Below are positions 1 to 40,676 of a stretch of DNA of 64,000 nt, piece by piece. Every line of letters begins with the position of its first letter. Positions within the stretch are counted from its first letter, which is position 1. Location: NCBI GenBank assembly GCA_026390635.1, contig JAPLFO010000139.1, positions 34,333-98,332 of the forward strand, read 5' to 3'. The DNA is from Ignavibacteriales bacterium (GTDB taxonomy: Bacteria > Bacteroidota > Ignavibacteria > UBA10030 > UBA8401). Position numbers and translations under genes: made by a program. The notes below the pieces were generated by a model. That model searched no databases. It saw nothing but the letters and a program-made list of their open reading frames with translations, and had not been told where the DNA came from.

Positions 1-466
1 GGGTGTGCAATTCCGCCCCATCGTAGCAGTTGACCGTCAATCCGCCCATCATCGATGCAGAGATGTTGTCGGGGTGCCCTTCCAACGCCAATCCTATTGT
101 CAGCATCTGCGTTTCTGAAAGCTTCAGGTCAAAAAGCCTGTTGGCAAGAACGATGCCGGCGGTACATGCTGCCCCGCTTCCACCCAGGCCGCCGTACGCA
201 GGAATGTTATTCTCCAGGTGAAGCCGAAGATGTGCTTGCCGTGGATCTCTCCCCGCCGCATGCAGCGCTGCACAAATCCCTTGATAGACAAGATTGTTTG
301 AATCGGTTGCGATGTGGTTTATTCCTTCACCTTCCACTGTGATTGTCAACGGCGCCTGTTGATCCGCTTCTCCCGAAACAATGAGATAGCGATTCAATGC
401 CAGGCCCAGCACATCAAAACCGGGACCCAGATTGGATGTTGACGCCGGAACGCGAACTCTAACCAT
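1..466 (-). CDS. thrB: homoserine kinase, N-terminal part (gene continues beyond window start)
   Basis: Reverse-complement translation from the ATG at 464-466 gives MVRVRVPASTSNLGPGFDVLGLAL..., carrying the GHMP-kinase PxxxxNLGPGFD motif. Its start overlaps the thrC stop (TGATG). Confidence 0.8.
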   Translation of the reverse strand, partial: MVRVRVPASTSNLGPGFDVLGLALNRYLIVSGEADQQAPLTITVEGEGINHIATDSNNLVYQGICAALHAAGRDPRQAHLRLHLENNIPAYGGLGGSGAACTAGIVLANRLFDLKLSETQMLTIGLALEGHPDNISASMMGGLTVNCYDGAELHT

Positions 467-1752
467 CACCTTTCTGTCCTCTCTGAGAGAATTTTTTCGA
501 CATCGCCGATTTCTGCACGAATCTCGACCGGCGGATTAGCAAGAGGGTGTGTCTTTGCAAAATGATAATCCACGATACTCTGCGGATCTTTTAAAATATT
601 TCCGGTAAGGATCCCGACAACCGTCTCCCCTTCGTCGATGATTCCCGCCGTCACAAGTTTTTTCAGTCCGGCGACCGTTGCACACGATGCCGGTTCCGCT
701 CCTATGCCGGCGGCATCGACATGCGCTTTCGCCTCCAAAATCTCCTCATCTGTCACGCTCTCGACAATGCCGTTCGTCCATCGCAATGAACGGACAGCTT
801 TAGAATAGTTCACCGGGTTGCCGATCTTGATGGCTGTGGCAATGGTGTCTGCCTTTTGCGGTCGCAGTGTGGAAAACCCATTCTTGAATGCTTCATAAAA
901 AGGACTTGCACCCTGTGCCTGAATGACCGCAAAACGCGGCATTTTGTCAATCCACCCGAGTTCCACAGCTTCGTGCAGTGCCTTTCCAAAGGCGCTGGTA
1001 TTTCCAAGATTCCCGCCGGGAAAAACAAACCAATCCGGAACCCGCCAGCGCAATTGCAGAAGCGCCTCCCAGACGATCGTCTTCTGCCCTTCCAGTCTGA
1101 ATGGATTGATCGAGTTGAGAGGATAGGCACCGAGTCGTTCCTGCGCTTCCCGGATCAACCGCATGCAGTCATCAAAATCCCCGTCCACAACTAGCGTCTT
1201 CGTCCCGTAGGCAAGCGCCTGTGATATTTTTCCAACTGCAACATTTCCCTTGGGAATAAGCACCAGTCCCGCTATTTCCGCCTCGGAAGCATAAGCCGCC
1301 AGAGATGCAGACGTATTTCCGGTAGATGCGCATGTCACGGCGCGCTGCCCCAGCGCCCGCGCCTGAGTTACTGCAGCGGTCATGCCGCGATCTTTAAATG
1401 ATCCTGTCGGATTCTCTCCTTCGTGTTTTAAAAACAGATTTCGGCAACCGGTCCACAGAGAAACTTTTTTACTGCGGTACAAGCGCGTGTTCCCTTCTTG
1501 TTTGGAGACAATCGCTTCGTCTGGAAATCCCGGCAGGACCATGTTGCGGAATCGCCAGACACCGCCCGCAGGCTGGCCGTTCAACATGGCAGAATGCTCG
1601 CCGAACTGCTCACGGGACAGATCGAACGACGCGCGCACGCTCTGCCAATCATGAGACACATCCAACAGGTTGCCGCAGGTGCATGTGAATCGAATATCCG
1701 AGAGCAAATATTCCCTGCCGCATTCAATGCAGCGAAGACACGAATAGGTCAT
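466..1752 (-). CDS. thrC: threonine synthase
   Basis: 428-aa ORF with PLP-dependent threonine synthase features (N-terminal Cys-rich zinc-ribbon CLRCIECGREY..., ...FKDRGMT... motif). Start ATG overlaps proC stop (ATGA). Confidence 0.9.
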   Translation of the reverse strand: MTYSCLRCIECGREYLLSDIRFTCTCGNLLDVSHDWQSVRASFDLSREQFGEHSAMLNGQPAGGVWRFRNMVLPGFPDEAIVSKQEGNTRLYRSKKVSLWTGCRNLFLKHEGENPTGSFKDRGMTAAVTQARALGQRAVTCASTGNTSASLAAYASEAEIAGLVLIPKGNVAVGKISQALAYGTKTLVVDGDFDDCMRLIREAQERLGAYPLNSINPFRLEGQKTIVWEALLQLRWRVPDWFVFPGGNLGNTSAFGKALHEAVELGWIDKMPRFAVIQAQGASPFYEAFKNGFSTLRPQKADTIATAIKIGNPVNYSKAVRSLRWTNGIVESVTDEEILEAKAHVDAAGIGAEPASCATVAGLKKLVTAGIIDEGETVVGILTGNILKDPQSIVDYHFAKTHPLANPPVEIRAEIGDVEKILSERTER

Positions 1753-2631
1753 TGTGGTTGCACTGGTTTGGTGATGAGTTCACTGAGCTCCTTTGACCGG
1801 CGGGTTGCCGTCGCAACCGCATCAATAAGCATGGAGCGCAATCCGTGGGATTCCAATTCGTGTACTGCATTAATCGCCGTTCCGCCCGGTGTTGTCACTT
1901 GATCACGCAGAATGGCCGGATGCAGTTGAGATATTTTCACAAGTTTTGCCGAACCCAAAACGGTTTGAACTGCCAGCTTGGTTGCCACGTCGCGACTCAA
2001 TCCCATTTTGACACCGCCGTCGATCAGGGCTTCGATCACCATATAGATGTAGGCCGGCCCGCTGCCGCTGAGTCCCGTCACCGCATCCAGTTGATGTTCT
2101 TCGACGACGACAACCTCACCGACTGCTTCGAAAATTGCAATAGCCATCTGTGCATGTTCTTCCGTGACAGAATCCCCGAACGCGACGGCTGTCGCGCCTT
2201 CGTCAACCGTCGATGCGATGTTCGGCATCGAGCGAACAATCGGATTCTTCTTGCCAATCCGCTTCTGCAGCGCCTCTATGGTGACACCGGCGGCAATGGA
2301 GATGATGAGCTGGGATTCCAGAAGCGTTTCTTTGATCTCATCTATGACTTTTCCAATGGTATACGGTTTGACACAGAGCATCACGACGTCCGCATTGACG
2401 ACAGCATCCCGATTGTGCAGCGTCGTGCGTATTTTCCATTTGCTTGCAAGCCTCTCAAGCTTTTCACTATGAATACCGCTCGCGATGATTTTGTCATGCG
2501 GCGCGATCTTGGCATTGAGGATGCCGCGCAGCAATGACGTTCCCATATTGCCTGCACCGATGATGGCGATAGATCGATTGAGATTCTTCGAGGAACCGCG
2601 CGTGCTTGCCTGTTCATTCTGCGTAAACATG
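1749..2631 (-). CDS. proC: pyrroline-5-carboxylate reductase
   Basis: The ORF extends to 2813, but the conserved core begins at MFTQNEQ...IAIIGAGNMG (Rossmann GxGxxG) followed by a ProC-like C-terminal dimerisation region. Preferred start 2629-2631, giving about 294 aa. Confidence 0.8.
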
Positions 2632-26856: not shown

Positions 26857-28671
26857 TCAGTTTCTTTTTTTAGGCAGCTTCGGCAAATTCTTCGTTAAGG
26901 AATTCATAATCCCGCCGCCGCCTTTTTTCGGTGTCACTTTCTGCAGCGGCTGATTATCGTGCTGCTTGTTCACAAAGAACTGCTGACCGATGGAGAGAAT
27001 ATTGAAAACAAAGTAATACAGATTTAGTCCGGACGGGAAGTTGTTGAACAAAAGCCACATCATGATCGGCATCATCCAGACCATGCTTTTCTGACGCGGG
27101 TCGGTCACCGTCATCTTCTGCTGAACGAACATTGTGATACCCATCAGCAGCGCTACGCCGCTCAGTGCGTGGACGCCAAACAGCGGCAGCGTAAACGGCA
27201 GGCTCAGAACAACATCCGGAACGGAAAGATCTTTAATCCACCAGAAAAATTCCGCATGCCGAAGGTTGATCGACGTCGTAAAGAGCGTATAGAGCGCATA
27301 GAGAATCGGCATCTGCAGTAGCAGCGGCAGACATCCGCCGGCCGGATTGACGCCGTAGTCTTTGTAGAGCTTCATCACCTGCTCGTTCATCTTTGCAGGA
27401 TCGTCTTTGTATTTTACCTTGATCTCTTCCATCATCGGCTGGAGAGCCTGCATCTTCTTCATCGACTTCATGCTGTTTTTGTTCAGCGGATGAAGGGCGA
27501 CTTTGATGAGGATGGAGAAGAGGATGATTACGATGCCGTAGTTCGGGATGAAGAGATGCAAAAAGCGAAATAGCGGCATGAATATGTAGTTGTTCAACGG
27601 CCGGATCCAGGACCATCCCATGCTGAGTATGTTGTCCAGGCTGCGCCCAATATTTTTGATTACTGTGAAGTCCAATGGACCAAGAAACACGGTGAAGGAT
27701 GTTGTTTCTTCCATTCCGTTTTTGTAAGGCACTTTGAGGCCGATGGAATAATGCTCAAGAGCTCCGCCGGATGGTGCGCTCTCATGTTTGCCGCCGAGAT
27801 ATCCCCCTTGCGCTTTTTTGTCATCAGAGAGGAGGGCAACGGCAAAATATTTTGTGCGCGCAGCCACCCAGTCTGTCGAACCATTGGTATTCGATTCCGG
27901 TAATTCTCCGACTTTGGCTGCATCGATCTCGCTCAGTTCGCCTCCGGCAAAAAGGAATGCTTTCGCAGACTGCGATTCGTCGACGCTGTTGTATTCCGCA
28001 TAGCGAAGACCGCTTTCCCAGACCACCTGGTACTCATAATTGGCAATAACCCGCTGCACCCCTTTGAATGTCACCGCCGCATTGAACGTATAGTCGCCGT
28101 TCTTAAAGCGAAGTGTTTTGATAATGCTTCCGTCGCCGGCTTTCAGCTCAAAGGCAACAGTGTACTCCTCGCTTCCCGTCAGCGTCACGGATTGCGATGT
28201 CCGGAATGATCCATCAAAAAAGAGCGAACGGGTGTTGATGAGCTTTCCGTCGGTGGTATTGAAGAGGAGTGAAAAATCTCCCTGCTCCGGCGACTGCACC
28301 AGCTGCACGGGATTTCCATCCCATGTTTTGTACTGTTTCATCTCCCACGTACGGATGACGCCGCCTTTGGTGGAAAGTACTGCTTTGTACTGATCTGTTT
28401 CAATCGTCAACAAGCGTTCTGTCCCATTCGCTGCTCCGGAAAAATACTTTCCCAGTGTATCGCGCAGTGATGCGTCTTCCGGCACGGATGTCGTAACAGA
28501 TTCTTTCTGCTGCGAACGTTGTGCGGCAGCCGGTTTTGCGTGGGCCGAGTCTTTTGTCAACTCGGACTTTGATTTCAACTCCTGCTTGTTGGGGTTTGGC
28601 GAAGAGTACCACATCCACGCCATCAATACCACCGCGATGAGAACAAATCCTATTGTTGACTGTTTATCCAT
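26857..28671 (-). CDS. yidC: membrane protein insertase YidC
   Basis: 604 aa with an N-terminal TM, a large periplasmic domain and the C-terminal 5-TM YidC/Oxa1 core. Confidence 0.9.
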   Translation of the reverse strand: MDKQSTIGFVLIAVVLMAWMWYSSPNPNKQELKSKSELTKDSAHAKPAAAQRSQQKESVTTSVPEDASLRDTLGKYFSGAANGTERLLTIETDQYKAVLSTKGGVIRTWEMKQYKTWDGNPVQLVQSPEQGDFSLLFNTTDGKLINTRSLFFDGSFRTSQSVTLTGSEEYTVAFELKAGDGSIIKTLRFKNGDYTFNAAVTFKGVQRVIANYEYQVVWESGLRYAEYNSVDESQSAKAFLFAGGELSEIDAAKVGELPESNTNGSTDWVAARTKYFAVALLSDDKKAQGGYLGGKHESAPSGGALEHYSIGLKVPYKNGMEETTSFTVFLGPLDFTVIKNIGRSLDNILSMGWSWIRPLNNYIFMPLFRFLHLFIPNYGIVIILFSILIKVALHPLNKNSMKSMKKMQALQPMMEEIKVKYKDDPAKMNEQVMKLYKDYGVNPAGGCLPLLLQMPILYALYTLFTTSINLRHAEFFWWIKDLSVPDVVLSLPFTLPLFGVHALSGVALLMGITMFVQQKMTVTDPRQKSMVWMMPIMMWLLFNNFPSGLNLYYFVFNILSIGQQFFVNKQHDNQPLQKVTPKKGGGGIMNSLTKNLPKLPKKRN

Positions 28672-29359: not shown

Positions 29360-29503
29360 CTACTCGTCGCTAACGCTTAGTTTGTGGCGCCCTTTTGCTC
29401 TGCGGCGGGAAAGAACTTTGCGTCCGTTCTTCGTGGACATCCGTTCGCGGAAACCGTGTGTATTCTTGCGCTTCCGATTGTGTGGCTGAAAAGTGCGTTT
29501 CAT
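29360..29503 (-). CDS. rpmH: 50S ribosomal protein L34
   Basis: Not in the ORF track (47 aa). Manual reverse-complement translation gives [47 protein letters not shown]. Confidence 0.9.
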
Positions 29504-29697
29504 CAAAAACTCCTGTGTTTCAAATAAAAAAGGGGTGCCGTCGGCAATCCTTTGCGTATGTCAAATGAAAATAGGAAAAAAAAAGACCATAAACAAGAGG
29601 CGTCGTCTCCCTTTTTTTGCATTTTTGTCTTGACAACCCTTCAATTTTTAATGTATTATTAGTGTTCGAGGTATGGTGTTCTGGAGTGTTGACAAAA

Positions 29698-29930
29698 TGT
29701 TGATAACCTTTCCCCATCCACACCCTGTTTTTGCCCTTGACTTTGTAGCCCGAAATTGAATCTTTTTGGGATGTGAATAACTGGTAAATAAGTCTATCGA
29801 TGTGTTATATGTCAATAAGTTAGCGCGGTTTATCTTATGTTATTAATTTTTTGATCGGTCTAAGTTATTAACTAACGCTTTTCCTCTTTGTTGATAAGTA
29901 TGTTGATAACTTTACGGGAACTGTGAATAA
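29698..29930. promoter_or_regulatory. DnaA-box cluster in the rpmH/dnaA divergent intergenic region (dnaA autoregulation and/or left part of a bipartite oriC)
   Basis: 9-mers matching TTATNCACA, all in the same orientation as read on the minus strand: tgttgataa at 29698, 29889 and 29901; tgtgaataa at 29772 and 29922; ccatccaca at 29715. An AT-rich tract lies at 29760-29880. Three boxes sit within 45 nt of the dnaA ATG. Confidence 0.55.
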
Positions 29931-29933
29931 CCT

Positions 29934-31349
29934 ATGGAACATGTTACGACTTCCCATCTAAGCAGCCTAGAAACAGCGGAAGCAGGAGGGGTTTGGGAGA
30001 AATGCCTCTCTCTTGTCAAGCCACAAATTCCCACACAAAGCTACAAAACGTGGTTTGAACCCATTCGACCGGTGAAAATCGGCGAAGATGGAGAATTGGT
30101 GGTCAACGTCCCCAGCCAATTTTTTTATGAGTGGTTGGAAGAGCACTATGCGCCGTTGATAAAGAACACTATCACACAATTATTGGGCGGTTTGGGACGC
30201 CTCACGTACATCGTCGTCCCCCCGGACGAATCGGACGCTCCTGTTCCCGTACTTCTGAAGGAACGCGCCGTTGCTCCTCCCCCGCTGGTCCAGATGGAAG
30301 AGCTGCTTCCACCGATCCGTTCTCATCTGAATCCGCGTAATACCTTTGCGAATTTCATCAAGGGGGAGAGCAACCAGCTCGCAAGGGCGGCGGCAACAGC
30401 GGTTGCAAATAATCCCGGAGGAACATCTTTCAATCCCCTCGTCATCTACGGGGGAACCGGATTGGGAAAGACGCATCTTGTTCAGGCAATCGGCAACAGC
30501 TCACTGGAATCTGGAAAGGCAAAACGCGTCGATTATGTCTCCAGCGAGAAATTCATGGTCGAGTTCGTGGAGTCCATCAAGTCCGACACAATGGCACACT
30601 TTTCGAACTACTATCGAAGCATGGATATTTTAATAGTCGACGACATCCAGTTCCTTGCCGGAAAAGAAAAGACACAGGATAGTTTCTTCCATACATTTAA
30701 CACGCTTCACCAGTTGGGAAAACAGATTGTCCTTTCATCGGACAGGGCTCCCAAAGATTTAAAGGGACTCGATGACCGTCTCTTGTCCCGATTTCAGTGG
30801 GGATTGACGGCTGACATCCAGCCGCCGGATCTGGAAACCAGAACAGCCATTCTGCGCAAGAAGTGCGATGATGACAGTATTGATATGCCGCAGGAAGTCT
30901 TGGATTTTATGGCGGCAAATGTCACTTCCAATATCCGCGAATTGGAGGGATGTTATATCAGCCTTCTTGCAAAGTCATCTCTCGAAAACAGAGAGATCAA
31001 CATCGATCTTGCACGTGATGTGCTCCGAATCGTCGTCAATGATGTCAGAATGCCGATTACTGTCGATGCTATTCAACGCACCGTGGCAGAGTACTATGAC
31101 ATTCCTACGGATCTGTTGCGTGCAAAAACCCGGCGACAGGAGATTGTTACTGCCCGCCAGGCGGCGATGTATCTTGCAAAGGAAATGACCAATTGTTCGC
31201 TGAAGACCATTGGGCTTCATTTTGGAGGCCGCGACCACAGCACGGTAATTCATGCATACCAATGCGTCGAGGATCAGCTCAAGACAGATTCCACCTTCAG
31301 AGACACGCTCGATCAGATGCGGAAAAAGATCACCAACACTTCTCGCTGA
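29934..31349 (+). CDS. dnaA: chromosomal replication initiator protein DnaA
   Basis: 471 aa with AAA+ (GGTGLGKTHL), sensor motifs and a C-terminal DNA-binding domain (…HSTVIHA…). Confidence 0.95.
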   Translation: MEHVTTSHLSSLETAEAGGVWEKCLSLVKPQIPTQSYKTWFEPIRPVKIGEDGELVVNVPSQFFYEWLEEHYAPLIKNTITQLLGGLGRLTYIVVPPDESDAPVPVLLKERAVAPPPLVQMEELLPPIRSHLNPRNTFANFIKGESNQLARAAATAVANNPGGTSFNPLVIYGGTGLGKTHLVQAIGNSSLESGKAKRVDYVSSEKFMVEFVESIKSDTMAHFSNYYRSMDILIVDDIQFLAGKEKTQDSFFHTFNTLHQLGKQIVLSSDRAPKDLKGLDDRLLSRFQWGLTADIQPPDLETRTAILRKKCDDDSIDMPQEVLDFMAANVTSNIRELEGCYISLLAKSSLENREINIDLARDVLRIVVNDVRMPITVDAIQRTVAEYYDIPTDLLRAKTRRQEIVTARQAAMYLAKEMTNCSLKTIGLHFGGRDHSTVIHAYQCVEDQLKTDSTFRDTLDQMRKKITNTSR

Positions 31350-31770: not shown

Positions 31771-32739
31771 ATGTGGACTGCAGCTATTCTTGCCGCATTT
31801 GTCTGTATATGGATAGTGTTTGAATATAGACTTCGTAAGCCCGATCAGTTGGTGCTTCGCGAAACTGCCAAAGGACTGACAATCCGCACGGGACGTTTCT
31901 ATCCGCGTCATTTCAGTCTGGCAATGTCCCGTACCACTCACTCTTTTGCCGTCACCGTGGATGCTTCAGCAAAAGGAAACCTCGATGTGCGCGTGAAAAT
32001 TGCCGTTTCAGTTACAGCGTCCACAGATAATATTTTCGCTTTAATGCGGGTAGGAGGCTGGAATTCCGGAGCGGTTGAAAAGGCAGCGAAAGAACTGGAA
32101 TCGATTTTCATCGGAACAGTAAAAGGATATACCGAACATTTGGATATTGAAAGCATTTCGTCTGCGCAGATTGCACAACATTTGATGCAAAGTGCAAAAA
32201 ATGTTCGGGAGACATTGGGTCTGGAAATTCTATCATTGTCGATACTTTCTTCCGAACCGGTGAACATACAGATATCGGAAGCGCTGCGGCAGAGAGAAAG
32301 CGCGCGCATTCTCGAACAAACAGAAATGCTGAATCAACAGGCACGCGTTGCCACCGCAAGAGCACGTGCTGCTGCCGATGAGGAGATAGCGTTGGTTGAA
32401 CATCAACGCGAGGTGAAACAGATTGAACTGAAGACAGCTTCTTTCGCAAAAGAGTCCCACCTACAATCTCTGCGTGTGGAAGAAGAGATAAAACACACAA
32501 AACTGCGTCTGGAGATGGAAAAGAAAGAACTCGACCTTCTCAAAGGAAGTCCCGAGTTGCTGATGTTGACACCACAGGCGGCGAGGTTGGCCGAAGCAAG
32601 CCAGGGACTGAAAAACGCGCGAACAGTCGTCTCCGTTGGATCAAAGGAAATTGCACAAGGAGTTGAACTGTTTGGTATTTTTCAAAAAGTATTCGAACAA
32701 GCCGTCACGACATACAAGCAGAAATCAAAAGACAAATAA
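31771..32739 (+). CDS. SPFH/band-7 (flotillin-like) membrane protein
   Basis: 322 aa with an N-terminal TM helix, an SPFH domain, then an Ala/Glu-rich coiled-coil (…ARARAAADEEIALVEHQREVKQIELK…). Its stop TAA is immediately followed by the ATG of the next gene. Confidence 0.75.
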   Translation: MWTAAILAAFVCIWIVFEYRLRKPDQLVLRETAKGLTIRTGRFYPRHFSLAMSRTTHSFAVTVDASAKGNLDVRVKIAVSVTASTDNIFALMRVGGWNSGAVEKAAKELESIFIGTVKGYTEHLDIESISSAQIAQHLMQSAKNVRETLGLEILSLSILSSEPVNIQISEALRQRESARILEQTEMLNQQARVATARARAAADEEIALVEHQREVKQIELKTASFAKESHLQSLRVEEEIKHTKLRLEMEKKELDLLKGSPELLMLTPQAARLAEASQGLKNARTVVSVGSKEIAQGVELFGIFQKVFEQAVTTYKQKSKDK

Positions 32740-35700
32740 ATGACGGTCTCTTCATTTCATCTCAAACCGCTGAAAGCGGCGAAGGTATCGGAAATAAGCG
32801 AAGCAACGGCGTCATCCGCCGTGGCACCGGCGGACCGTGTCAATTTCCATATAGGAAATCCAGTGCAGGATACGCGCCTGACGTCGGCGTACTTGCGCAT
32901 GGTTCTTGGAGTGGATATCAACCGCGAAGAACTTGCCGATTCCAATGTGCCGCAATTGCTGCACTTTCTGGGATGGAAGGAGAAGGACGAGGAGGTTATT
33001 GCTTTCTATAGGACGCTAATCCAACGAAGTTCGCCGTACACTCCCCGTGGAGGATTCTCACGCACAGCTCCGCATTCCCTGGTGAAAACTTTTCAGCAGT
33101 GGCTGATGAACCAGCAGGAGCCGCTGGTGTATGATGGAGGAGAAACAAGCGGGCGGCGCGAAATGTCGTTGGGATCCGGCGGAATCGCGGAAGCACTTCG
33201 TGTCTTTTTTCACATGTTGACGCTTTGTGTGGAGATGCGTCCGGTGCACGTTTTTGTTTATGGGACAAGTCTGCCGGCCCCCGTGATGGGGTTTCAGGAG
33301 TTGTTGGTAGAGTATTTGCCGGACGACGAAAAAAAAGCGTTGGAATTTCTTGAGCACGCTCTTGAAGAAAATCCATTTCCTTCCTATGTCGTCCTAGGAC
33401 GAATTTGCAGAGAAGAAACACGGCGCATGCTCCGGTTGTTGAGTATGCGGCACCCATTGTATTTCGTCGAGGCGAATGATGCACCCAACCATCTCTCGCT
33501 GTCGCGCGAAGCAAAACTGGCGCAGAGGGTGATTCGATTTCTATCGGCCGGCATTTTTTCTTCGCGATTCTCCGGACTTTCCACCGTCTTTGTTGCCGGA
33601 CCGTATGAATATCTCGAACTTTTCGACACGATCCATTTTCAGCTCAAAGGAACGCCGTCAGCGTCCGAAATAGAGCTGCTCTCGTATGCCATGACGCATG
33701 ACTTCAGCGCCGTTCCATCCGAGCACATTTCTTCCGACGTTATTATCGACGCTCCTTATGAGGGATTCGGTTTCGGGAACGATCGTGCGTTGCCGCAGAT
33801 CGCCTTCCGCACAGAAGAACGACTTGGCCGCCTCGTTGCGGGGGCGGGGGTAAAACTGAAAGGACTTGCCGATTCGGTTTATCGGCGGACGGAAACTATC
33901 GGTTCCCACATCGGCGATCTTCCATTTATGCAGCCGTTCGATTCGTTTTCCGGAAGGGAAGCAAACAAACTTCTGGAAGACGCACTTCGTTTCATCGATA
34001 GCTCCGAATGGCATGCAGAGCTCACACAGAATTTTCTTGTTGCATTTACGAAGCATCATCCTGAATACCGGTTGAAGAGATGCTGTGCCGCAAGCGGCTC
34101 GTCGCGTACAGCATTGAGTCTGATCGGATTCCACTGCGGGATTTCAGACGTCATTGTTCCAGATCTGAGCTGGACGTACGAGCACTGTTTTCCACGCGTG
34201 GATGCCGTTCCATTGACGGAAGCATTCGATCTTGATGCGGAAGCAATGATTGCCGCTGCCGCCGAAAAGCTTGCGGTCGACCCATCATGGAAAAAACGCG
34301 GGGCGATTGTCCTCAACAATCCGCACAACGCGACGGGAAAAGTATTCAGCGATTCGGCGATCAGGAAACTGATCACGTGGCTGCTGACAAACGGGATCGC
34401 CGTCATCGACGATTTGTCCTATCAAAATGTTGCGCCAAGGGAAGAGTGGGCAGAAGTGCCGACATTGCGTCAAACGGCGGACGAATTGGTGCGCGGCGGC
34501 ATGGTGACAAGCGCACAAACAGATCGTGTAATTACTGTGCACTCCCTGTCGAAAACAGATTGCTTGGCCGGAGCACGCCTTTCGGTTGTGGAACTACGGG
34601 ATGAGCATCTCTTTGAGAAATTCAAGACGATCAACGCAGGAATACCCGCCAACAGCGGTGCAATATTTCTGACGTATTTGTTCTATCGCAATACCAGGGA
34701 ATCGGTGCGCGCGTACTGGCGGCTGCGAAACGCCATATTCCTTGAACGCTCCGCCGCGTTGCAGGCGGCGGCTGAAAATCTTCCAGCAGAACGGAATCCT
34801 TGCGAAATATCCATTATTCCTCCCACCGGCAGCATGTATCCCCTCCTGCGTGTCGGAAAACTTCCTTCGGGACTTTCGCTGGACTGGCTGGCATCAGGTC
34901 TTGCTCGGCAGGGAATCGGGCTGGTTCCTCTCAGTGCATTTGCGCGAACAGAAAAAGGATTTGAGACAGCGCGCCGCACATTTCGTCTGACGCTGGGCGG
35001 AGTAGATGCGGCGGACACCCTGCTGAAAAAAACACGGCGGGTTCTGATCGATCTGAATCATCTGATCGCGGAGGAGGCCGGGCACTACAATCGTACGGAG
35101 CCGCGGCGTTCGTTGCTTGTCCGGCATTCATCGGGAACCGATTTGTGGGATTCGGTCGAACTACGCGTGCTGGAAAACGCGAAGCAATTGGCAGAGAGCC
35201 GGCGCTTCCTGAAAGGAGAGAAGAACTCCGAATCCCTCCGCGGTCACTTTGCCGAGCGGCTTTCCCGCTTCCGGCAGCGCTTTGTGGATCGGCACGATAC
35301 AGCGACAGCTCTTGTGCAGCGTGCACAAGAAAGCAATGGGCGCACACTGAGTGCTGTTCTCGAGAGGGAATTTCATAAAGAGCCGCTTGCCGTGCGCGAG
35401 GAGACATTCCGTCAACGACTCTTCGACCGGACCGTTCATCCGACGCAAATGTACTCTATTCGTTCTGAAGCGGCGTGGGACGTTCTGATTCATGCGACGT
35501 TGCGCGGAAGAAATCCGTCTGAAACGCTGGTGCAGTGTGCGGCGGAGGAAATGCTTCGCGAGTACTACGGCATGAACGTTGCCATCAATTCCGGGGACGA
35601 ATCGCAGGAACTGATTATCGATCTGGATGCAATGATCGCCGCCGAACTTTCGTCCGAGCTTTGGTTCGAACCGTCGCGGGCATTTGTATCGTTCTGGGGG

Positions 35701-38298
35701 GATTGGGACGGCAGCACACGTCCTTCCGGGCAGGGACATCGATTGGTTGCTTCGGTCTTGATTGAAAATGTCACCCGGCAGTCTGCAATTCTTTCTCTTC
35801 TTTTGGCGTGCGAGCCGTCGTTGTCCATCGATCCGTCGCTCCGCACAGCGCTGGAGCACCTCCGCGAGCAGACGGTAAAATTTACGCGGCTCCTCAACAC
35901 GATCACACAACTGACGCATCAATTGGAGAAGCGATATCGCGGGATTCTTCCATTCAACGTTCGCGCAAGTGCTGCGCGGCGATTGGGTATGTCGCTGCAT
36001 CTTGCCCGCGATCCCGTGACGCTGCTGTGGCATCATAACGATCGTTTGGAACGGACAATGCTGGATCTTCGCCGCAAACGTCGCGAGATGCTGACATACT
36101 ATTTTGCGCTGAATAAAAAACTGCGGAAGGAGTTATTCAAACTTATACCCGCGATCCAGCGCAATATTCACGATCCGGCGATTGCACTGGAAGCAGGTAT
36201 GTATCGCGATTTGCTGCGGCGAATGGTTATTACGCCGCGCATCCACCAGAAAATGATTACAGCGCAGGATCAATTTGCAATCGATACAACGGTTCACAAT
36301 ATCAACGAGATCAACGAAATTGCCGGTCGTCATGGCAATCCCGGAATGGTGCTCGCGCTGCAGGTGAGCATGGCGGCAAAAGCGGAAGCACTGATTTCAC
36401 TCGACAGAAAAATGGGAGCTGCGCGCGAAACAATTTTGCGCGAACATCCGGATGCAGATCTGGCAGCGGTCCGGCTGGTGCCGTTGTTTGAGGATCTTGA
36501 TGCCGTAAGCGAGATTCCCCAATATCTGAATCGGGTCTGGGAGTATTGCCTGCAAAGCCGGCGGATGAATCAGGAACCGCGCGAACGTTTTGCGGAAATT
36601 GTGGGAGAAGTCTTTATTGCCGGATCGGACCTGAGCCAGCAAATCGGGCAAACAGCAGGATCGGCCGCATACCGACGTGCAAAAAAAGACCTTATCTTCT
36701 GGTTGGCCGAGCGCGGATTGACGGATGCCGTTCGCTTGAAGATGGGGAGCGGAGAACCGATGCAGAGGCAGGGCGGTTACTATGCAGAGTACTCCGGCGC
36801 GGCGGCATTTCTCCATACGCCCGAAATAGAGCAGCGACTCGTCAGCCAGCTTCATGCATCCACCCGAAAGAGTACGGAATACGCAACGACGCCGTTGATG
36901 GGCGTGTTTGCCGGAGGAGATCTCCGCACATTTCAATCCGCAATTTCGGAACAGCTTCGTTACCTTTCAACCTCCGATCTCTCGCGGCTGCTCCATCATA
37001 TTCGATCGACGCAGCAAACACACCGCAGCGATCTCGTTCGGGCCAGCGAATCATTTGCCGAGACGCGCCTGAAAGGAACGTCGCACGGAACACAGGAACT
37101 GGAGCGCCTCACCATCGGTACGCAGGAAAAGGCATTCGAAGAATTCCTGCCGTTGGTAACCAAGAATTTCCGCCAGATATTGTACGGAGCCGATGACGAT
37201 GTCGTCGGCATTCATCTGATCTCGTACTTCATCGCGAGATCGTCACCAATTCTACGAGATCGTCCGACCGTCCGTCCCAGCCGGACCATGTCCGCAGACC
37301 GCGGACAGAAGATCCTGGAACGCATTGCCGAAACGATTCCATCGTCGCGTTACGGAAGCATGCTGCGGGCGATTGCACATAACCAGGCCCAGACAACCGT
37401 GCTGGGTGTCAATCAATTGACCACCGGATTGTTTCGTGCGCTCGATACGGTTTCGCGGACGGAAACAGGAGAGCGTTCCGTCGAAGCGGCGGCGGTGGAA
37501 CGGATTCTTCCCCATCTTCCGGTCTACGAAATTCTGCAGACGCTCCGATTGTATCACGATCCCGCGCTTCACTATTTGCAGAGAATAGAACGCGCTTTTC
37601 CTGCGGGCAACTCTGCGTTTCTCGCGCTGCGTGAAGACAATGATGCCATGGCAGGATTTGTCGGCATCTTTCAAAAGGAGCTACTCCGGCGTCATGGTGT
37701 CGACGTTCCCGATTTTTTTGACGGTGATACATTTATTCCAGATCTCTTGCCGACACTTCGTCCCGATCTCGCGGTGCTGCTGCAGCCGGATCTCTTCAAC
37801 ACAAATGCCGAGATATTGCGGGAATCCATTCACGGACCTGTTCCATCCTCCTGGACGAAGTCGGTCGATGAACTGCTGGCCGCGCCCCGGAAGATTGCTG
37901 CATGGCGTGAAAACATCTGGCAGATACTGGAGCGGCCGGTATTTCAGCGCGTACAGAGTTTTGCCGAGCTTGCAATTTCGCTTCATTCACTCTCGCGGTC
38001 AACGGGCGCGCCGGAAACAGGCGGGAGCAAAAAGGGATTGAAGCTTTCTCCGGATCTTTCCCATTTCTTCCGTATTGCCCGATCAGACGACGACATGCGC
38101 CAGTTCCTTGCGGCCTCGCTGGAATATCTTTCGTCCATGTCCGGCGGCATGGTGGAGGTGCCCATCAGTATTGTGCGCGCGATGAAAGAAGTCGAGAGGA
38201 TTGCCAAAATTGAGGAGCAGGTGCTGTTGCCCAAAGAGCAGGATGTGCTGCGTTTCTATCTGCTGCAAATAGCCCGGCTCACCGGCGAGAACGGATAA
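32740..38298 (+). CDS. giant (1852 aa) multidomain protein: class I/II aminotransferase-like domain with a large insertion, fused to a full-length divergent phosphoenolpyruvate carboxylase-like domain
   Basis: The aminotransferase domain shows the N-terminal RVNFHIGNPVQDT (as in NLGIGEPDF), AIVLNNPHNATGKVF (NPxNPTG), IAVIDDLSYQN (Asp/Tyr), VHSLSKTDCLAGARLS (PLP Lys and Arg at +8) and a C-terminal small domain ending FRLTLGG at about residue 760. A roughly 420-aa insertion sits between the first and second motifs. The PEPC-like domain shows TVHPTQ at residue 900 (TAHPTE), VPLFEDLDAV at 1247 (VPLFETIEDL), IAGSDLSQQIGQTAGSAAYRRAKKDL at 1293 (GYSDSxKDAG…WAxYxAQ), LKMGSGEPMQRQGG at 1333 (FHGRGGSxGRGG, with His/Arg replaced) and a C-terminal …RLTGENG* (PEPC ends …RNTG). 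Spacing between these motifs matches E. coli Ppc. Confidence 0.65.
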   Translation: MTVSSFHLKPLKAAKVSEISEATASSAVAPADRVNFHIGNPVQDTRLTSAYLRMVLGVDINREELADSNVPQLLHFLGWKEKDEEVIAFYRTLIQRSSPYTPRGGFSRTAPHSLVKTFQQWLMNQQEPLVYDGGETSGRREMSLGSGGIAEALRVFFHMLTLCVEMRPVHVFVYGTSLPAPVMGFQELLVEYLPDDEKKALEFLEHALEENPFPSYVVLGRICREETRRMLRLLSMRHPLYFVEANDAPNHLSLSREAKLAQRVIRFLSAGIFSSRFSGLSTVFVAGPYEYLELFDTIHFQLKGTPSASEIELLSYAMTHDFSAVPSEHISSDVIIDAPYEGFGFGNDRALPQIAFRTEERLGRLVAGAGVKLKGLADSVYRRTETIGSHIGDLPFMQPFDSFSGREANKLLEDALRFIDSSEWHAELTQNFLVAFTKHHPEYRLKRCCAASGSSRTALSLIGFHCGISDVIVPDLSWTYEHCFPRVDAVPLTEAFDLDAEAMIAAAAEKLAVDPSWKKRGAIVLNNPHNATGKVFSDSAIRKLITWLLTNGIAVIDDLSYQNVAPREEWAEVPTLRQTADELVRGGMVTSAQTDRVITVHSLSKTDCLAGARLSVVELRDEHLFEKFKTINAGIPANSGAIFLTYLFYRNTRESVRAYWRLRNAIFLERSAALQAAAENLPAERNPCEISIIPPTGSMYPLLRVGKLPSGLSLDWLASGLARQGIGLVPLSAFARTEKGFETARRTFRLTLGGVDAADTLLKKTRRVLIDLNHLIAEEAGHYNRTEPRRSLLVRHSSGTDLWDSVELRVLENAKQLAESRRFLKGEKNSESLRGHFAERLSRFRQRFVDRHDTATALVQRAQESNGRTLSAVLEREFHKEPLAVREETFRQRLFDRTVHPTQMYSIRSEAAWDVLIHATLRGRNPSETLVQCAAEEMLREYYGMNVAINSGDESQELIIDLDAMIAAELSSELWFEPSRAFVSFWGDWDGSTRPSGQGHRLVASVLIENVTRQSAILSLLLACEPSLSIDPSLRTALEHLREQTVKFTRLLNTITQLTHQLEKRYRGILPFNVRASAARRLGMSLHLARDPVTLLWHHNDRLERTMLDLRRKRREMLTYYFALNKKLRKELFKLIPAIQRNIHDPAIALEAGMYRDLLRRMVITPRIHQKMITAQDQFAIDTTVHNINEINEIAGRHGNPGMVLALQVSMAAKAEALISLDRKMGAARETILREHPDADLAAVRLVPLFEDLDAVSEIPQYLNRVWEYCLQSRRMNQEPRERFAEIVGEVFIAGSDLSQQIGQTAGSAAYRRAKKDLIFWLAERGLTDAVRLKMGSGEPMQRQGGYYAEYSGAAAFLHTPEIEQRLVSQLHASTRKSTEYATTPLMGVFAGGDLRTFQSAISEQLRYLSTSDLSRLLHHIRSTQQTHRSDLVRASESFAETRLKGTSHGTQELERLTIGTQEKAFEEFLPLVTKNFRQILYGADDDVVGIHLISYFIARSSPILRDRPTVRPSRTMSADRGQKILERIAETIPSSRYGSMLRAIAHNQAQTTVLGVNQLTTGLFRALDTVSRTETGERSVEAAAVERILPHLPVYEILQTLRLYHDPALHYLQRIERAFPAGNSAFLALREDNDAMAGFVGIFQKELLRRHGVDVPDFFDGDTFIPDLLPTLRPDLAVLLQPDLFNTNAEILRESIHGPVPSSWTKSVDELLAAPRKIAAWRENIWQILERPVFQRVQSFAELAISLHSLSRSTGAPETGGSKKGLKLSPDLSHFFRIARSDDDMRQFLAASLEYLSSMSGGMVEVPISIVRAMKEVERIAKIEEQVLLPKEQDVLRFYLLQIARLTGENG

Positions 38299-38393: not shown

Positions 38394-40676
38394 TCATGTT
38401 TGCGGTGACCGTGCTTCCGCAGCGGGAAGCTCAATGAAGAATTTACTGCCAACCCCTTCTTGCGATTCCACCCATACGGTGCCGTTGTGACGTTCTACAA
38501 TCTTCTTCACGAGCGGCAGGCCAAGTCCCTCACCCTGAATAATTCCGCGCGGGTTCAGGCGGTGAAAGAGTTCCCACACCTTCTGCCTGTGCTCGGCGGC
38601 AATTCCGATTCCGTTGTCTTCAACAGAGTAAACGATGCTCTCCCGGTGAAAACTGGCGCCAATTGTGATGACGGGATGACGCTCCGACGCGGCGTATTTC
38701 AGGGCATTGTCGATAAGATTGGAAAACACCTGGTTGATTTGACCGGAATCTCCGTGGCAGGGAGGAAGGTTTCCCGCGATAATGGAAGCATGCGCATTTT
38801 CTATTTGATATTTTAGAGAGTCAACAACATTTTCGAGCAGCTGATTCATGTTGATATACTCAGCGTGAAGATCGATGCGCCCACTGCGCGAGAATCGGAG
38901 GAGTCCACTGATGAGGGAATCCATTTTCTTGCCGCTGCTTTGAATGAAACGCAATGACGTTTCGATATCGTCGGTCAGCGTGGGCAGCGTTTTTGTCTTG
39001 AATGCGTCGGGAGGTAGAAGCGTCTGAAGAAGCTGCGAGAATTCGCGAAAAGAACGCGCAAGCTGCTCGCCAAAGCCAAGGATGTTGATTATAGGAGAAC
39101 GAAGGTCGTGTGATGTAACATACACAACATTTTCCAAATCCTGGTTTTTTTGTGCAAGCTGCACCAGAAGCGCCCCACGCTCGGTCTCGGCAAACCGCCT
39201 GTCTGTAACATCCTGCGTTGTGCCGAACACATCATACACATTGTCCCGCGCGATAGATTCGGCGACAGTGCGCAGGTGGCGGAGGCCGGATTCTCCAGCG
39301 GGAAGAGCGCGATATTCCACACCCATGGGCATTCCCTCATTCAGCGCAGAACGGAATGCCGAGTCCACCATCGGACGATCCTCCTCAACGACCGTTGCAA
39401 GAAAGTCTTTCAGAAAAAGATGGGCATCAGCTGGATATCCCAAAAGACGGCACATCTCTGTAGAGGAATCGAAGAGACCGCTGCGTCCGTCAAAATGCCA
39501 GCTACCGATATGGGCGATGGATTGAGCGCGGTGCAGCTGTGCTTCACTTTCGCGCAGAGCCTCTTCTGCCTTGTTTCGTCGAATGATGTTCATGCGCTGT
39601 ACAAAAATTGCAAGCGCGAGAAATAATATTATCACCGCCGCCGTATTGATGACCGTACGATGGACTTCGTAGAATCCGGGAGGGCGGTTGATCAAAACAA
39701 CGCCGGCGGGAAGCCGCTGATTTGTAAGACCATAGCGCTCCAGGGCGTTGTAGTCCAACACTAAACGATACGGGTTATTGACAACAACCGGAATAAGTGA
39801 CGCATGCTCTCCAGCCAGGATGCGAAGCGCGAGCTCTGCGGCGCGCATTGCATGAGGACGTCCGCCCAAAACGCTGCCACCGACAGCTCCAAATCCCATC
39901 CGCTCACCGTGAACGGCATATACGGGTACCGACGAAGCCTTGGCAAGTATGCGCGAGATATCCGGATGATTAAAGAGCTCACCGGAATTATCCCTGCTGA
40001 ACGACAGCGACAGGAGGATGGTGCCGTCAGAGAGACGGCGGACTGTATCAAGGATCTGTCCGATCGAGAGCGGCGGGAGATAGCGTACATGAATTCCAGA
40101 ATTCAATCCACGTAACCGTTCTTCCGCTTCCCGGCGAGTGGAAAGACCGGTACTGGTATAGTCATGAAGAACAACAATGTTGCGGATCTCAGGCTGCAGC
40201 GCAAGGGCAAGAGAAACGGTGCCGATGATATCCAGATATTCTGCGACACCGGTAATCTGTTGTATTCCCGTCACCATCTCCGGTCGATAGCCATTAATGC
40301 CCATGAAAACAATGGGGATGCCGGGAAAGAGTTGATCCCGAAACCTCACTGCGAAATCAAGAGCTGGATTGTCGAGAACAAAAACGATCGAAACCGGAAC
40401 GAGAGACAACTTTGTTTTTAGAAGATTCTTTGCAGCTTCAAAATGTTCGTAGGTCGGAAAGTGTTTGCAGTCAAGATACTCGATCATCGGATCGATTGGA
40501 ATTCTTGCAGCGGAAAAAGATTCAAGAATTCCGTTCACTTCTTCGTCAGACCAGGAATAGCCGTAATGATACGAATTCAGAATCAGAATGCTTTTCGTGG
40601 TTGATGGAACAGCAGAAGAGGTGGAGAGCAGAAGGAGGCTCATTCCCGCTATCAGACAGATGCGACATCGCCACAT
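38394..40676 (-). CDS. sensor histidine kinase with periplasmic ABC-type substrate-binding-protein-like sensor domain
   Basis: 760 aa with a signal peptide, a roughly 300-aa periplasmic binding-protein-like domain, a TM helix, a PAS-like region, HisKA (VTSHDLRSP) and HATPase_c (…DNGIGIAAEH…GLGLPLVK…). No response regulator is adjacent. Confidence 0.8.
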   Translation of the reverse strand: MWRCRICLIAGMSLLLLSTSSAVPSTTKSILILNSYHYGYSWSDEEVNGILESFSAARIPIDPMIEYLDCKHFPTYEHFEAAKNLLKTKLSLVPVSIVFVLDNPALDFAVRFRDQLFPGIPIVFMGINGYRPEMVTGIQQITGVAEYLDIIGTVSLALALQPEIRNIVVLHDYTSTGLSTRREAEERLRGLNSGIHVRYLPPLSIGQILDTVRRLSDGTILLSLSFSRDNSGELFNHPDISRILAKASSVPVYAVHGERMGFGAVGGSVLGGRPHAMRAAELALRILAGEHASLIPVVVNNPYRLVLDYNALERYGLTNQRLPAGVVLINRPPGFYEVHRTVINTAAVIILFLALAIFVQRMNIIRRNKAEEALRESEAQLHRAQSIAHIGSWHFDGRSGLFDSSTEMCRLLGYPADAHLFLKDFLATVVEEDRPMVDSAFRSALNEGMPMGVEYRALPAGESGLRHLRTVAESIARDNVYDVFGTTQDVTDRRFAETERGALLVQLAQKNQDLENVVYVTSHDLRSPIINILGFGEQLARSFREFSQLLQTLLPPDAFKTKTLPTLTDDIETSLRFIQSSGKKMDSLISGLLRFSRSGRIDLHAEYINMNQLLENVVDSLKYQIENAHASIIAGNLPPCHGDSGQINQVFSNLIDNALKYAASERHPVITIGASFHRESIVYSVEDNGIGIAAEHRQKVWELFHRLNPRGIIQGEGLGLPLVKKIVERHNGTVWVESQEGVGSKFFIELPAAEARSPQT

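Follow-up and report, generated by a model that had tools for sequence, protein, structure and literature searches.

Within the analysed window, a stretch of 64,000 nucleotides from an Ignavibacteriales bacterium, a single open reading frame encodes a protein in which two motifs of one class I aminotransferase lie several hundred residues apart. A preliminary description of the sequence proposed that about 420 residues of unknown function had been inserted into the aminotransferase domain, which raises the question of what this extra material is and what it does there. The protein is identical to MCX6137603.1 in NCBI ('pyridoxal phosphate-dependent aminotransferase [Ignavibacteriales bacterium]') and has more than 120 full-length homologues with 53–79% identity. 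A gene fusion, a frameshift or an assembly artefact was ruled out as the source of the unusual layout because the full length is conserved across the family; the protein is a conserved, uncharacterised protein of Ignavibacteria. The features on which the analysis relies are listed below, in window coordinates.

32740..38298, forward strand: large open reading frame of 1852 amino acid residues, which holds the region flagged in the preliminary description
32740..32874, forward strand: N-terminal segment (residues 1–45), with a helix at 15–24 and a strand carrying the motif at 33–44
32836..32871, forward strand: N-terminal motif RVNFHIGNPVQD (residues 33–44)
32875..33705, forward strand: domain A (residues about 46–322), a lysine-less, diverged fold-type-I (class I aminotransferase) large domain
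33034..33054, forward strand: PYTPRGG loop of domain A (residues 99–105), counterpart of the class I Y-x-P-x-x-G loop
33706..33939, forward strand: variable linker (residues 323–400), disordered at 323–348 and followed by a long helix at 350–391
33940..35109, forward strand: domain B (residues 401–790), a catalytic class I aminotransferase with a large and a C-terminal small domain, lacking an N-terminal 'G.P' strand of its own
34315..34338, forward strand: NNPHNATG, the NPxNxTG motif (residues 526–533)
34552..34554, forward strand: codon of Lys605, the predicted Schiff-base lysine and the only one in the protein, in an S-L-S-K motif after the strand 597–602

The wide spacing is real. The motif RVNFHIGNPVQD and the NNPHNATG sequence, which had been placed a few residues off (at 518–529), are separated by ~490 residues. 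In ordinary class I aminotransferases this distance is about 135 residues, so the extra material amounts to about 355 residues (about 46–400) and not to 420. The span originally assigned to it, 32900–34200, corresponds to residues 54–487 and runs ~85 residues too far, into the true catalytic domain. The three peptides quoted from the inserted region, SSPYTPRGGFSRTAPHSLV (residues 97–115), EMRPVHVFVYGTSLPAPVMGF (165–185) and RFSGLSTVFVAGPYEYLELFD (276–296), were all found in the protein, and a discrete module does part the N-terminal aminotransferase motif from the remainder of the domain that Pfam detects.

The Pfam family PF00155 matches only residues 424–754 (profile positions 43–348 of 361), with a score of 45.3–51.1 bits against a cut-off of 19.7, the upper figure being that of a chimera described below. 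The residues N530, D558, Y561, S604, K605, R613 and R749 do not vary among 150 sequences, the lysine being present in 150 of 150. Judged by its sequence, domain B is a complete and intact catalytic aminotransferase domain, for which PLP binding and transaminase activity are predicted. All its NCBIfam matches score far below the equivalog cut-offs (the best, DapC_actino, reaches 33.7 bits vs 355.65), and no substrate specificity can therefore be assigned. Domain B has no Y-x-P-x-x-G loop of its own, and the region 418–424 is variable.

The start of the aminotransferase profile is found at the other end of the extra material. The N-terminal (small-domain/lid) segment of class I aminotransferases occurs just once in the protein, as residues 1–45, and H37, I38, G39 and P41 are invariant in all 148 aligned sequences. 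When residues 1–41 were joined to residues 401–790, the PF00155 alignment reached back to profile position 4, starting from V34, and the score rose from 49.7 to 51.1 bits, whereas in control chimeras, which carried 41 reversed or unrelated residues instead, the alignment still started at profile position 44 (49.4 and 49.9 bits). The gain of 1.4 bits is small but specific and suggests that the profile takes the distant motif as its missing start, as the preliminary description had it. A second chimera, of residues 1–56 and 418–790, did not extend the PF00155 alignment. Nor does the profile place the N-terminal motif elsewhere, which would have left no insertion to explain: domain B contains no second 'G.P' strand, only a D401-x-F403 remnant. 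The mean pLDDT of residues 11–40 was 52/54/47 in an isolated model of residues 1–400 vs 71/82/83 in a model of residues 1–800, in which beta-bridges at 34–35 and 42 also show up. In the models, the N-terminal segment thus appears ordered only with residues 401–800 present, and part of the rise in pLDDT could reflect the deeper alignment (36 vs 23 rows).

What lies between the N-terminal segment and domain B escaped sequence searches. Pfam gave no match in residues 1–424 even at E≤10, domain A failing the gathering threshold, and both single-sequence and HMM searches of this region against Pfam, NCBIfam and the PDB sequences were without a match, so that sequence methods on their own would have left it 'unknown'. 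An exhaustive HMMER search with a profile of domain A returned 140 cluster representatives, with full-length members of ~1700–1950 amino acid residues and not one ordinary aminotransferase. All of these hits belong to the large-protein family or are fragments thereof, except P0257, a chance-level MyTH4 protein. The empty searches and the absence of ordinary aminotransferases from the exhaustive one are what would speak for an unrelated module, with a new fold and function, inserted in an aminotransferase. This literal reading of the preliminary description is already refuted, and we give it practically no weight: the model of domain A, which makes up the bulk of the supposed insertion, has the seven-stranded alpha/beta fold of an aminotransferase large domain, and domain A aligns with domain B in structural register (hhalign, E=0.0035 over 189 columns, with a probability of only 9%). 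With 120 close homologues the comparison gave no signal (E=0.42), and the lower E-value was obtained only after divergent members from the exhaustive search had been added. Nor is the region without motifs that can be placed: those of class I known from the family include the Y-x-P-x-x-G loop, present as PYTPRGG, and a strand that leads into a helix capped by Gly-Gly. Residues Y100, G104 and G105 of the loop are invariant in 150 of 150 sequences.

The alignment of the two domains shows what domain A has lost. The NNPHNAT loop of domain B faces a 7-residue gap in domain A, and Y561 and the phosphate-binding R613 face gaps as well. Domain A has no conserved Schiff-base lysine; the position opposite K605 is occupied by I272 (Ile/Val/Ala/Met in the family) according to the strand register or by S275 (Pro/Ser/Lys/Glu) according to hhalign. 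Only the acidic residue survives among the PLP-ligand positions, D558 being aligned with E244. Likewise, the model contains no C-terminal small domain of domain A: past the helix 308–321 there are just the disordered linker and one long helix. Residues about 46–322 are a degenerate duplicate of a class I aminotransferase large domain, a pseudo-enzyme without the Schiff-base lysine. The suggestion of an additional catalytic module is unlikely to hold, because the catalytic lysine and most of the PLP ligands are missing.

The protein therefore has the large domain twice, but the N-terminal segment and the small domain only once. In evolutionary terms, a tandem duplication followed by reciprocal loss describes this arrangement better than an insertion does: copy A lost its C-terminal small domain and catalytic residues, and copy B its N-terminal segment and tyrosine loop. 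The linker between the copies has pLDDT values below 50 at 323–348 and the lowest conservation in the protein (identity 0.21–0.25), and members of the family differ in its length (17 to 109 residues). The shortest one is found in P0252, a complete gene of 650 amino acid residues that consists of domains A and B only, with domain A running almost straight into the helix that precedes the first strand of domain B.

To our knowledge, ordinary fold-type-I aminotransferases work only as dimers, in which every active site needs the partner subunit to be complete. The tyrosine of the class I Y-x-P-x-x-G loop contacts the cofactor phosphate in the active site of the partner, across the dimer interface, and we take Y100, from family knowledge and its position and not from coordinates, to be this cross-subunit tyrosine. 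We consider it probable that the dead domain A is the built-in dimer partner of domain B, and that the protein is a single-chain pseudo-dimer with one active site. Domain A would pack against domain B within the chain, giving one active site centred on Lys605. It would have retained what a partner contributes, namely the interface of the large domain together with the invariant PY100xPRGG loop, and shed the parts of use only to an active site of its own (the lysine, the asparagine loop, the tyrosine, the phosphate-binding arginine and the C-terminal small domain). The N-terminal segment, with its FHIGxP sequence, would most likely dock on the small domain of domain B and supply the piece of the lid that domain B lacks. 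The dead large domain would thus lie topologically 'inside' the aminotransferase, as the preliminary description had sensed. The fold, the catalytic losses of domain A, the completeness of domain B, the conservation and the confident two-domain model are results of the analysis; the pseudo-dimer geometry, what Y100 does and where the N-terminal segment docks are inferred. The model of residues 1–800 (pTM 0.85, mean pLDDT 86.8) confidently places domains A and B together in a defined arrangement. In a Foldseek search with this model, no solved chain in the PDB matched both halves at once.

The two domains might instead be unpaired, with domain B homodimerising with domain B of a second chain, and domain A pairing with another domain A or serving as a scaffold for the C-terminal part of the protein; this would give a conventional dimeric aminotransferase with an extra dead domain. 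Domain B has the full catalytic set and a complete large and small domain, all characterised class I aminotransferases are homodimers as far as we know, and contacts between chains are expected anyway, since PEPC-type enzymes, to which the C-terminal region is compared below, are oligomeric. However, domain B is without the Y-x-P-x-x-G loop and the N-terminal segment, so that a homodimer of domain B would miss the cross-subunit contacts kept invariant in domain A. The confident placement of both domains in the single-chain model and the linker of just 17 residues in P0252 also argue against such an arrangement, which we regard as improbable.

The conservation of domain A bears on a further possibility. 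Many polar residues of domain A are invariant (E151, E225, R228, R229, E244, N246, N250, R266, K303, E310 and E312), seemingly more than would be required of a partner with a structural role alone. Domain A could be a regulatory or substrate-handling module, whose remodelled cofactor pocket holds a phosphorylated or acidic small molecule; this could be an effector, non-covalently bound PLP or PMP, or an intermediate exchanged with the C-terminal PEPC-like domain. Such a role is compatible with the pseudo-dimer model, but locates the function in the pocket of domain A itself. The invariant Gly147-Gly148 helix cap lies where aminotransferases bind the cofactor phosphate, the invariant acidic E244 lies opposite D558 of domain B, and R266, K303 (148 of 150 sequences), R228, R229, N246, N250, E310 and E312 are invariant or nearly so. 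A similar role, PLP binding without catalysis, has been suggested for the N-terminal half of GLDC, which lacks the lysine (PMC7259800). On the other hand, deletion or substitution has removed four of the five canonical PLP ligands from domain A, E244 and N246 are not retained in the compact relative P0252, the sequence allows no ligand to be inferred, and the conserved polar residues are equally explicable as interfaces with domain B or with the C-terminal domain. We therefore regard a ligand-binding function of domain A as rather unlikely, and the built-in partner remains the preferred reading.

A partner without a lysine has precedents. Glycine decarboxylase is a single chain of two structurally similar fold-type-I halves with the Schiff-base lysine in the C-terminal half only, and in some organisms the halves are separate alpha and beta subunits (PMC7259800). 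The 1852-residue protein likewise joins two fold-type-I halves, of which only the C-terminal one has the lysine, and it would share with the glycine decarboxylase P-protein (GLDC/GcvP) the design principle of a built-in lysine-less partner; neither sequence nor structure placed it in the GcvP family. In SerTA (Ser4/Ser5) of Serratia sp. ATCC 39006, the dead partner Ser4 resembles domain A in consisting of little more than a large domain and in having no active-site lysine. Ser4 and Ser5 are, however, separate polypeptides annotated as sugar aminotransferases, whereas the protein described here is fused and belongs to class I (PF00155); unlike in SerTA, its dead copy comes first and bears the sole N-terminal segment. 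Ordinary class I aminotransferases (the AspAT-Ib, LysN, YbdL and ACC synthase group) are proteins of ~400 residues that form symmetric homodimers with two active sites. The present protein instead has two large domains but a single small domain and a single lysine in one chain, which continues for ~1060 more residues. The M. penetrans MetRS, considered as another tandem-aminotransferase precedent, was rejected, as it is not such a case.

The remainder of the chain and the neighbouring gene provide the context of the aminotransferase.

35317..38295, forward strand: C-terminal region (residues about 860–1852), a putative, very remote PEP-carboxylase-like domain with the motifs TVHPTQ (898–903), WGDWDGS (986–992), VPLFED (1247–1252), AGSDLSQ (1294–1300) and GSGEPMQRQGG (1336–1346); the protein ends in ...GENG
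31771..32739, forward strand: upstream partner gene of 322 amino acid residues; its product is hydrophobic at the N-terminus, and the C-terminal half is long and coiled-coil-like

Even at E≤10, neither Pfam nor the search of PDB sequences gave a match for the C-terminal region, and a search of its HMM against the PDB sequences was also empty. Comparison of a 120-sequence family alignment with a 15-sequence PEPC alignment by hhalign gave E=4.1e-4 and a probability of 35% over 225 columns, corresponding to residues 466–702 of E. coli Ppc. Weaker matches were obtained for sub-slices of the region, collinear with Ppc 103–292 (E=0.092) and 219–483 (E=0.0065), and the match to the single E. coli Ppc sequence (E=0.035) is too weak on its own. 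The PEPC alignment was built from diverse plasmid and chromid ppc loci; a contig scan with E. coli Ppc gave only PEPCs at least 91% identical, from Enterobacteriaceae and close relatives, which were unusable for a profile. The region seems to align collinearly with most of Ppc, and the Ppc motifs TAHPTE, SWxGGDRDGNP, ISM, PLFET, GYSDS, GRGGxxGRGG and LQxELL (near the C-terminus) as well as the terminal glycine have counterparts in it. The histidine of TAHPTE, the glutamate of PLFE, the aspartate of SD and one arginine of RxGG are kept. In contrast, the arginine of GDRDG is replaced by tryptophan, the lysine of SDSxK by glutamine, and the histidine and arginine of FHGRGG by glycine and serine, and the arginine of GSRP is not conserved; because of these changes the region is not a canonical PEPC. 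On this evidence, the C-terminal ~1000 residues look like a very remote relative of PEP carboxylase.

The stop codon (TAA) of the 322-residue gene directly abuts the ATG of the large open reading frame. This gene also lies immediately upstream of the homologue P0105 (50% identity, E=4e-115) and of the distant P0174 (36%, E=1e-61), and is a conserved partner; its product had no match in Pfam, NCBIfam or the PDB. A role of the locus in defence was considered and rejected, as PADLOC did not recognise the large protein and matched the upstream gene only marginally, to PbeC (E about 1e-3).

The second subunit of a fold-type-I enzyme has been replaced by a lysine-less copy in the glycine decarboxylase P-protein and in the recently solved Ser4/Ser5 complex. 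The large-protein family would carry this design to the class I aminotransferases, and within a single chain, with the twist that the sole N-terminal lid segment is on the dead copy and the sole small domain on the live one; it would be a clean natural case of reciprocal degeneration following tandem duplication. More than 650 database proteins of this family (at 90% clustering) are labelled just 'PLP-dependent aminotransferase', with ~80% of each chain unannotated. For these, the analysis provides a conserved partner gene and a domain map that runs from a dead large domain through a linker to a live aminotransferase and a PEPC-like region. As a tentative and more far-reaching proposal, the protein may be the founding member of an enzyme family in which a class I aminotransferase that is self-sufficient as a single chain (a pseudo-dimer having one active site and an N-terminal lid that is domain-swapped) is fused to a very divergent PEP-carboxylase-type domain and works with a conserved, membrane-anchored coiled-coil partner protein, and in which the 2-oxo-acid of the C-terminal domain would be channelled into transamination (e.g. 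from an oxaloacetate-like to an aspartate-like compound). The overall function of this large protein of Ignavibacteria is now testable.

The aminotransferase region singled out in the preliminary description lies within one uninterrupted reading frame:

32740..38298, forward strand: large ORF, 1852 residues

The encoded protein is identical to NCBI MCX6137603.1 from an Ignavibacteriales MAG, annotated solely as 'pyridoxal phosphate-dependent aminotransferase'. More than 120 full-length homologues were found among the matches listed (53-79% identity, all 1816-1938 residues), mostly from Ignavibacteria, Melioribacter and Bacteroidota MAGs, and the whole chain is conserved, with dips at residues ~321-400 and 801-840. 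The length of the ORF is thus genuine and not a product of misassembly or a frameshift. No description of the family was found in the literature searched.

The N-terminal motif RVNFHIGNPVQD occupies residues 33-44 and the NPxNxTG motif, in the form NNPHNATG, residues 526-533, so that the unusual separation reported for them (~490 residues) is borne out; the three peptides quoted from the intervening region are also present, at residues 97-115, 165-185 and 276-296. The extra material is real, but it comprises ~355 residues (46-400) rather than 420, and the span originally assigned to it, residues 54-487, extends too far, taking in ~85 residues of the catalytic domain proper. The Pfam PF00155 match is limited to residues 424-754 (profile positions 43-348 of 361); residues 1-424 gave no Pfam match even at E<=10, and PDB sequence searches with the N-terminal region, as a single sequence or as a 23-sequence profile, were empty. 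When residues 1-41 were joined to 401-790, the Pfam alignment reached back to profile position 4, starting from V34, with 51.1 bits compared with 49.7 bits for domain B (401-790) alone, whereas control chimeras, in which the 41-residue segment was reversed or unrelated, started at position 44 (49.4 and 49.9 bits). This small but specific gain suggests that the N-terminal motif fits the aminotransferase profile.

In 150 sequences, the (nearly) invariant residues of domain B are S452-G453-S454, R456, N526, P528, N530, D557, D558, Y561, S602, S604, K605, R613 and R749, which in this enzyme family represent the phosphate cap, O3' Asn, N1 Asp, Tyr, Schiff-base Lys, phosphate Arg and carboxylate Arg. 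Judged by these residues, domain B is a complete aminotransferase and probably an active one. It lacks its own N-terminal 'G.P' strand, and the Y-x-P-x-x-G loop is also missing, residues 418-424 being variable.

The extra region was modeled with AlphaFold2 as residues 1-400, using 23 diverse homologues (mean pLDDT 81, pTM 0.70). Domain A (residues ~46-322) contains seven beta-strands (142-145, 169-174, 188-192, 215-219, 240-244, 264-269 and 283-286) with helices between them; residues 323-345 after it are disordered, and a single long helix spans 350-393. The profile-profile comparison of domains A and B was repeated after adding divergent members from the exhaustive search, and aligned residues 111-321 with 425-651 across 189 columns (E=0.0035). 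The two domains are in structural register at strand a and its Gly-rich helix cap, from strand e via a helix to strand d, and at strand b. In this alignment the NNPHNAT loop of domain B faces a 7-residue gap in domain A, Y561 and R613 likewise face gaps, and the residue facing K605 is I272 when judged by strand register or S275 according to hhalign; column counts over the 150 sequences revealed no conserved lysine at either position. The sole survivor is the acidic residue, D558 pairing with E244. These losses and column counts therefore identify domain A as a lysine-less pseudo-aminotransferase domain. An unrelated new module is excluded as the identity of the extra region: as first proposed, a discrete module does separate the N-terminal motif from the remainder of the domain, yet it proves to be a dead second copy of the domain's own fold rather than a catalytic insert of unknown type. 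In the exhaustive HMMER search, in which the domain-A profile was run against 1.84 billion representatives, 140 proteins matched, all from this family or its contig fragments except for one chance-level match, and no ordinary aminotransferase was among them.

Ordinary fold-type-I aminotransferases are obligate dimers, in which the partner across the interface completes the active site. The elements kept invariant here are those contributed by a dimer partner or completing a lid: Y100, G104 and G105 of PYxPRGG (150/150 sequences), H37-I38-G39 and P41 (148/148), and G147-G148. Among the invariant residues of domain A are also many polar ones (E244, R266, K303, R228 and R229, for example), which favor the main rival reading, possibly a complementary one, that its remodelled pocket binds a ligand; we consider this rather improbable. 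We favor, as the probable explanation, a dimer partner built into the same chain. The protein has one N-terminal segment (1-45), two large domains and one small domain, and a model of residues 1-800 (36 sequences) reached a mean pLDDT of 86.8 and a pTM of 0.85; the relative placement of A and B in this model is therefore confident. N-terminal blocks 11-20, 21-30 and 31-40 had pLDDT values of 71, 82 and 83, against 52, 54 and 47 in the 1-400 model, and beta-bridges at 34-35 and 42 were new, while the remainder of domain A was essentially the same. We infer that domain A would pack on domain B as an intramolecular pseudo-dimer with a single active site around K605, that Y100 would take the cross-subunit Tyr role, and that the N-terminal segment would dock on the small domain of B as the missing lid piece. 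The dead large domain would thereby lie topologically 'inside' the aminotransferase, as the preliminary description had sensed. The fold, the lost residues, the completeness of B, the conservation and the confident co-placement of A and B come directly from the computed results, and the geometry of the interface is proposed, as are the roles of Y100 and residues 1-45. A conventional B-B homodimer with a passive A domain seems quite unlikely.

The A-B linker is the least conserved stretch, its length ranging from 17 to 109 residues across the family. The shortest occurs in a compact relative, P0252:

L096 (Logan SRR12689826) 452..2404: complete 650-residue P0252 gene with a stop codon, followed by convergent genes

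P0252 consists of A and B only and has no C-terminal (PEPC-like) region. Its convergent downstream neighbors are a response regulator and a PAS histidine kinase, and the large ORF of the window likewise has a convergent kinase just downstream (PAS/HisKA/HATPase, 38394..40676, minus strand); this shared neighbor may be a coincidence. In the large protein, what remains in domain B of the canonical N-terminal motif region is D401-x-F403 and, after it, helix 408-417 (33940..34011 compared with 32740..32874). Since P0252 lacks even a counterpart of this helix, the N-terminus of the second copy seems to have eroded to different degrees in different family members.

The remaining features of the locus are as follows:

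35317..38295: C-terminal region of the large protein, residues ~860-1852 (~1000 residues), with profile-profile likeness to PEP carboxylase (PEPC)
31771..32739, forward strand: 322-aa partner gene; product hydrophobic at the N-terminus and coiled-coil-like in its C-terminal half
29934..31349: dnaA (Pfam Bac_DnaA, DnaA_N, Bac_DnaA_C)
26857..28671, minus strand: yidC

The C-terminal region has no Pfam or PDB sequence match. Compared with a profile built from E. coli ppc and from plasmid and chromid loci (15 diverse PEP carboxylases in all), it aligned with E. coli Ppc 466-702 (E=4.1e-4, probability 35%, 225 columns), pairing VSM/ISM, PLFED/PLFET, AGSDLSQ/GYSDSxK and GSGEPMQRQGG/GRGGxxGRGG; weaker collinear segments are TVHPTQ/TAHPTE, SFWGDWDGSxRP/SWxGGDRDGNP and FQxELLRR/LQxELLxR, and the protein ends in ...GENG. 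The likeness is collinear and visible by profile-profile comparison only, and several Arg and Lys positions of PEPC are replaced, pointing at most to a putative, very divergent PEPC-type domain. The partner gene, which has no family match, ends in a TAA stop directly abutting the ATG of the large ORF. The same gene lies immediately upstream of both a close homologue, P0105 (50% identity), and a very distant one, P0174 (36%), so that the pairing of the two genes is conserved. GC content falls to 0.376 at 29500-29999, ahead of dnaA, against ~0.52 in the surroundings. The region of the chromosomal replication origin is probably within the window.

The design principle of a lysine-less built-in partner is already known. 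Glycine decarboxylase (P-protein, GcvP) has two fold-type-I halves, as a single chain or an alpha-beta pair, with an N-terminal half lacking the lysine (PMC7259800), and in Ser4/Ser5, a heteromeric aminotransferase of Serratia sp. ATCC 39006, a lysine-less, large-domain-only chain joins a complete chain, so that each heterodimer has one active site (PMC11726168). Unlike both, the present family is of class I (PF00155-type) and carries its sole N-terminal segment and its sole small domain on different copies; it has both halves fused in one chain, in contrast to Ser4/Ser5, and shows no relationship to GcvP either in sequence or in its best structural match. It seems to have arisen by tandem duplication followed by reciprocal loss, and overall it is a tidy case of pseudo-enzyme evolution in a large, conserved protein without an assigned function.
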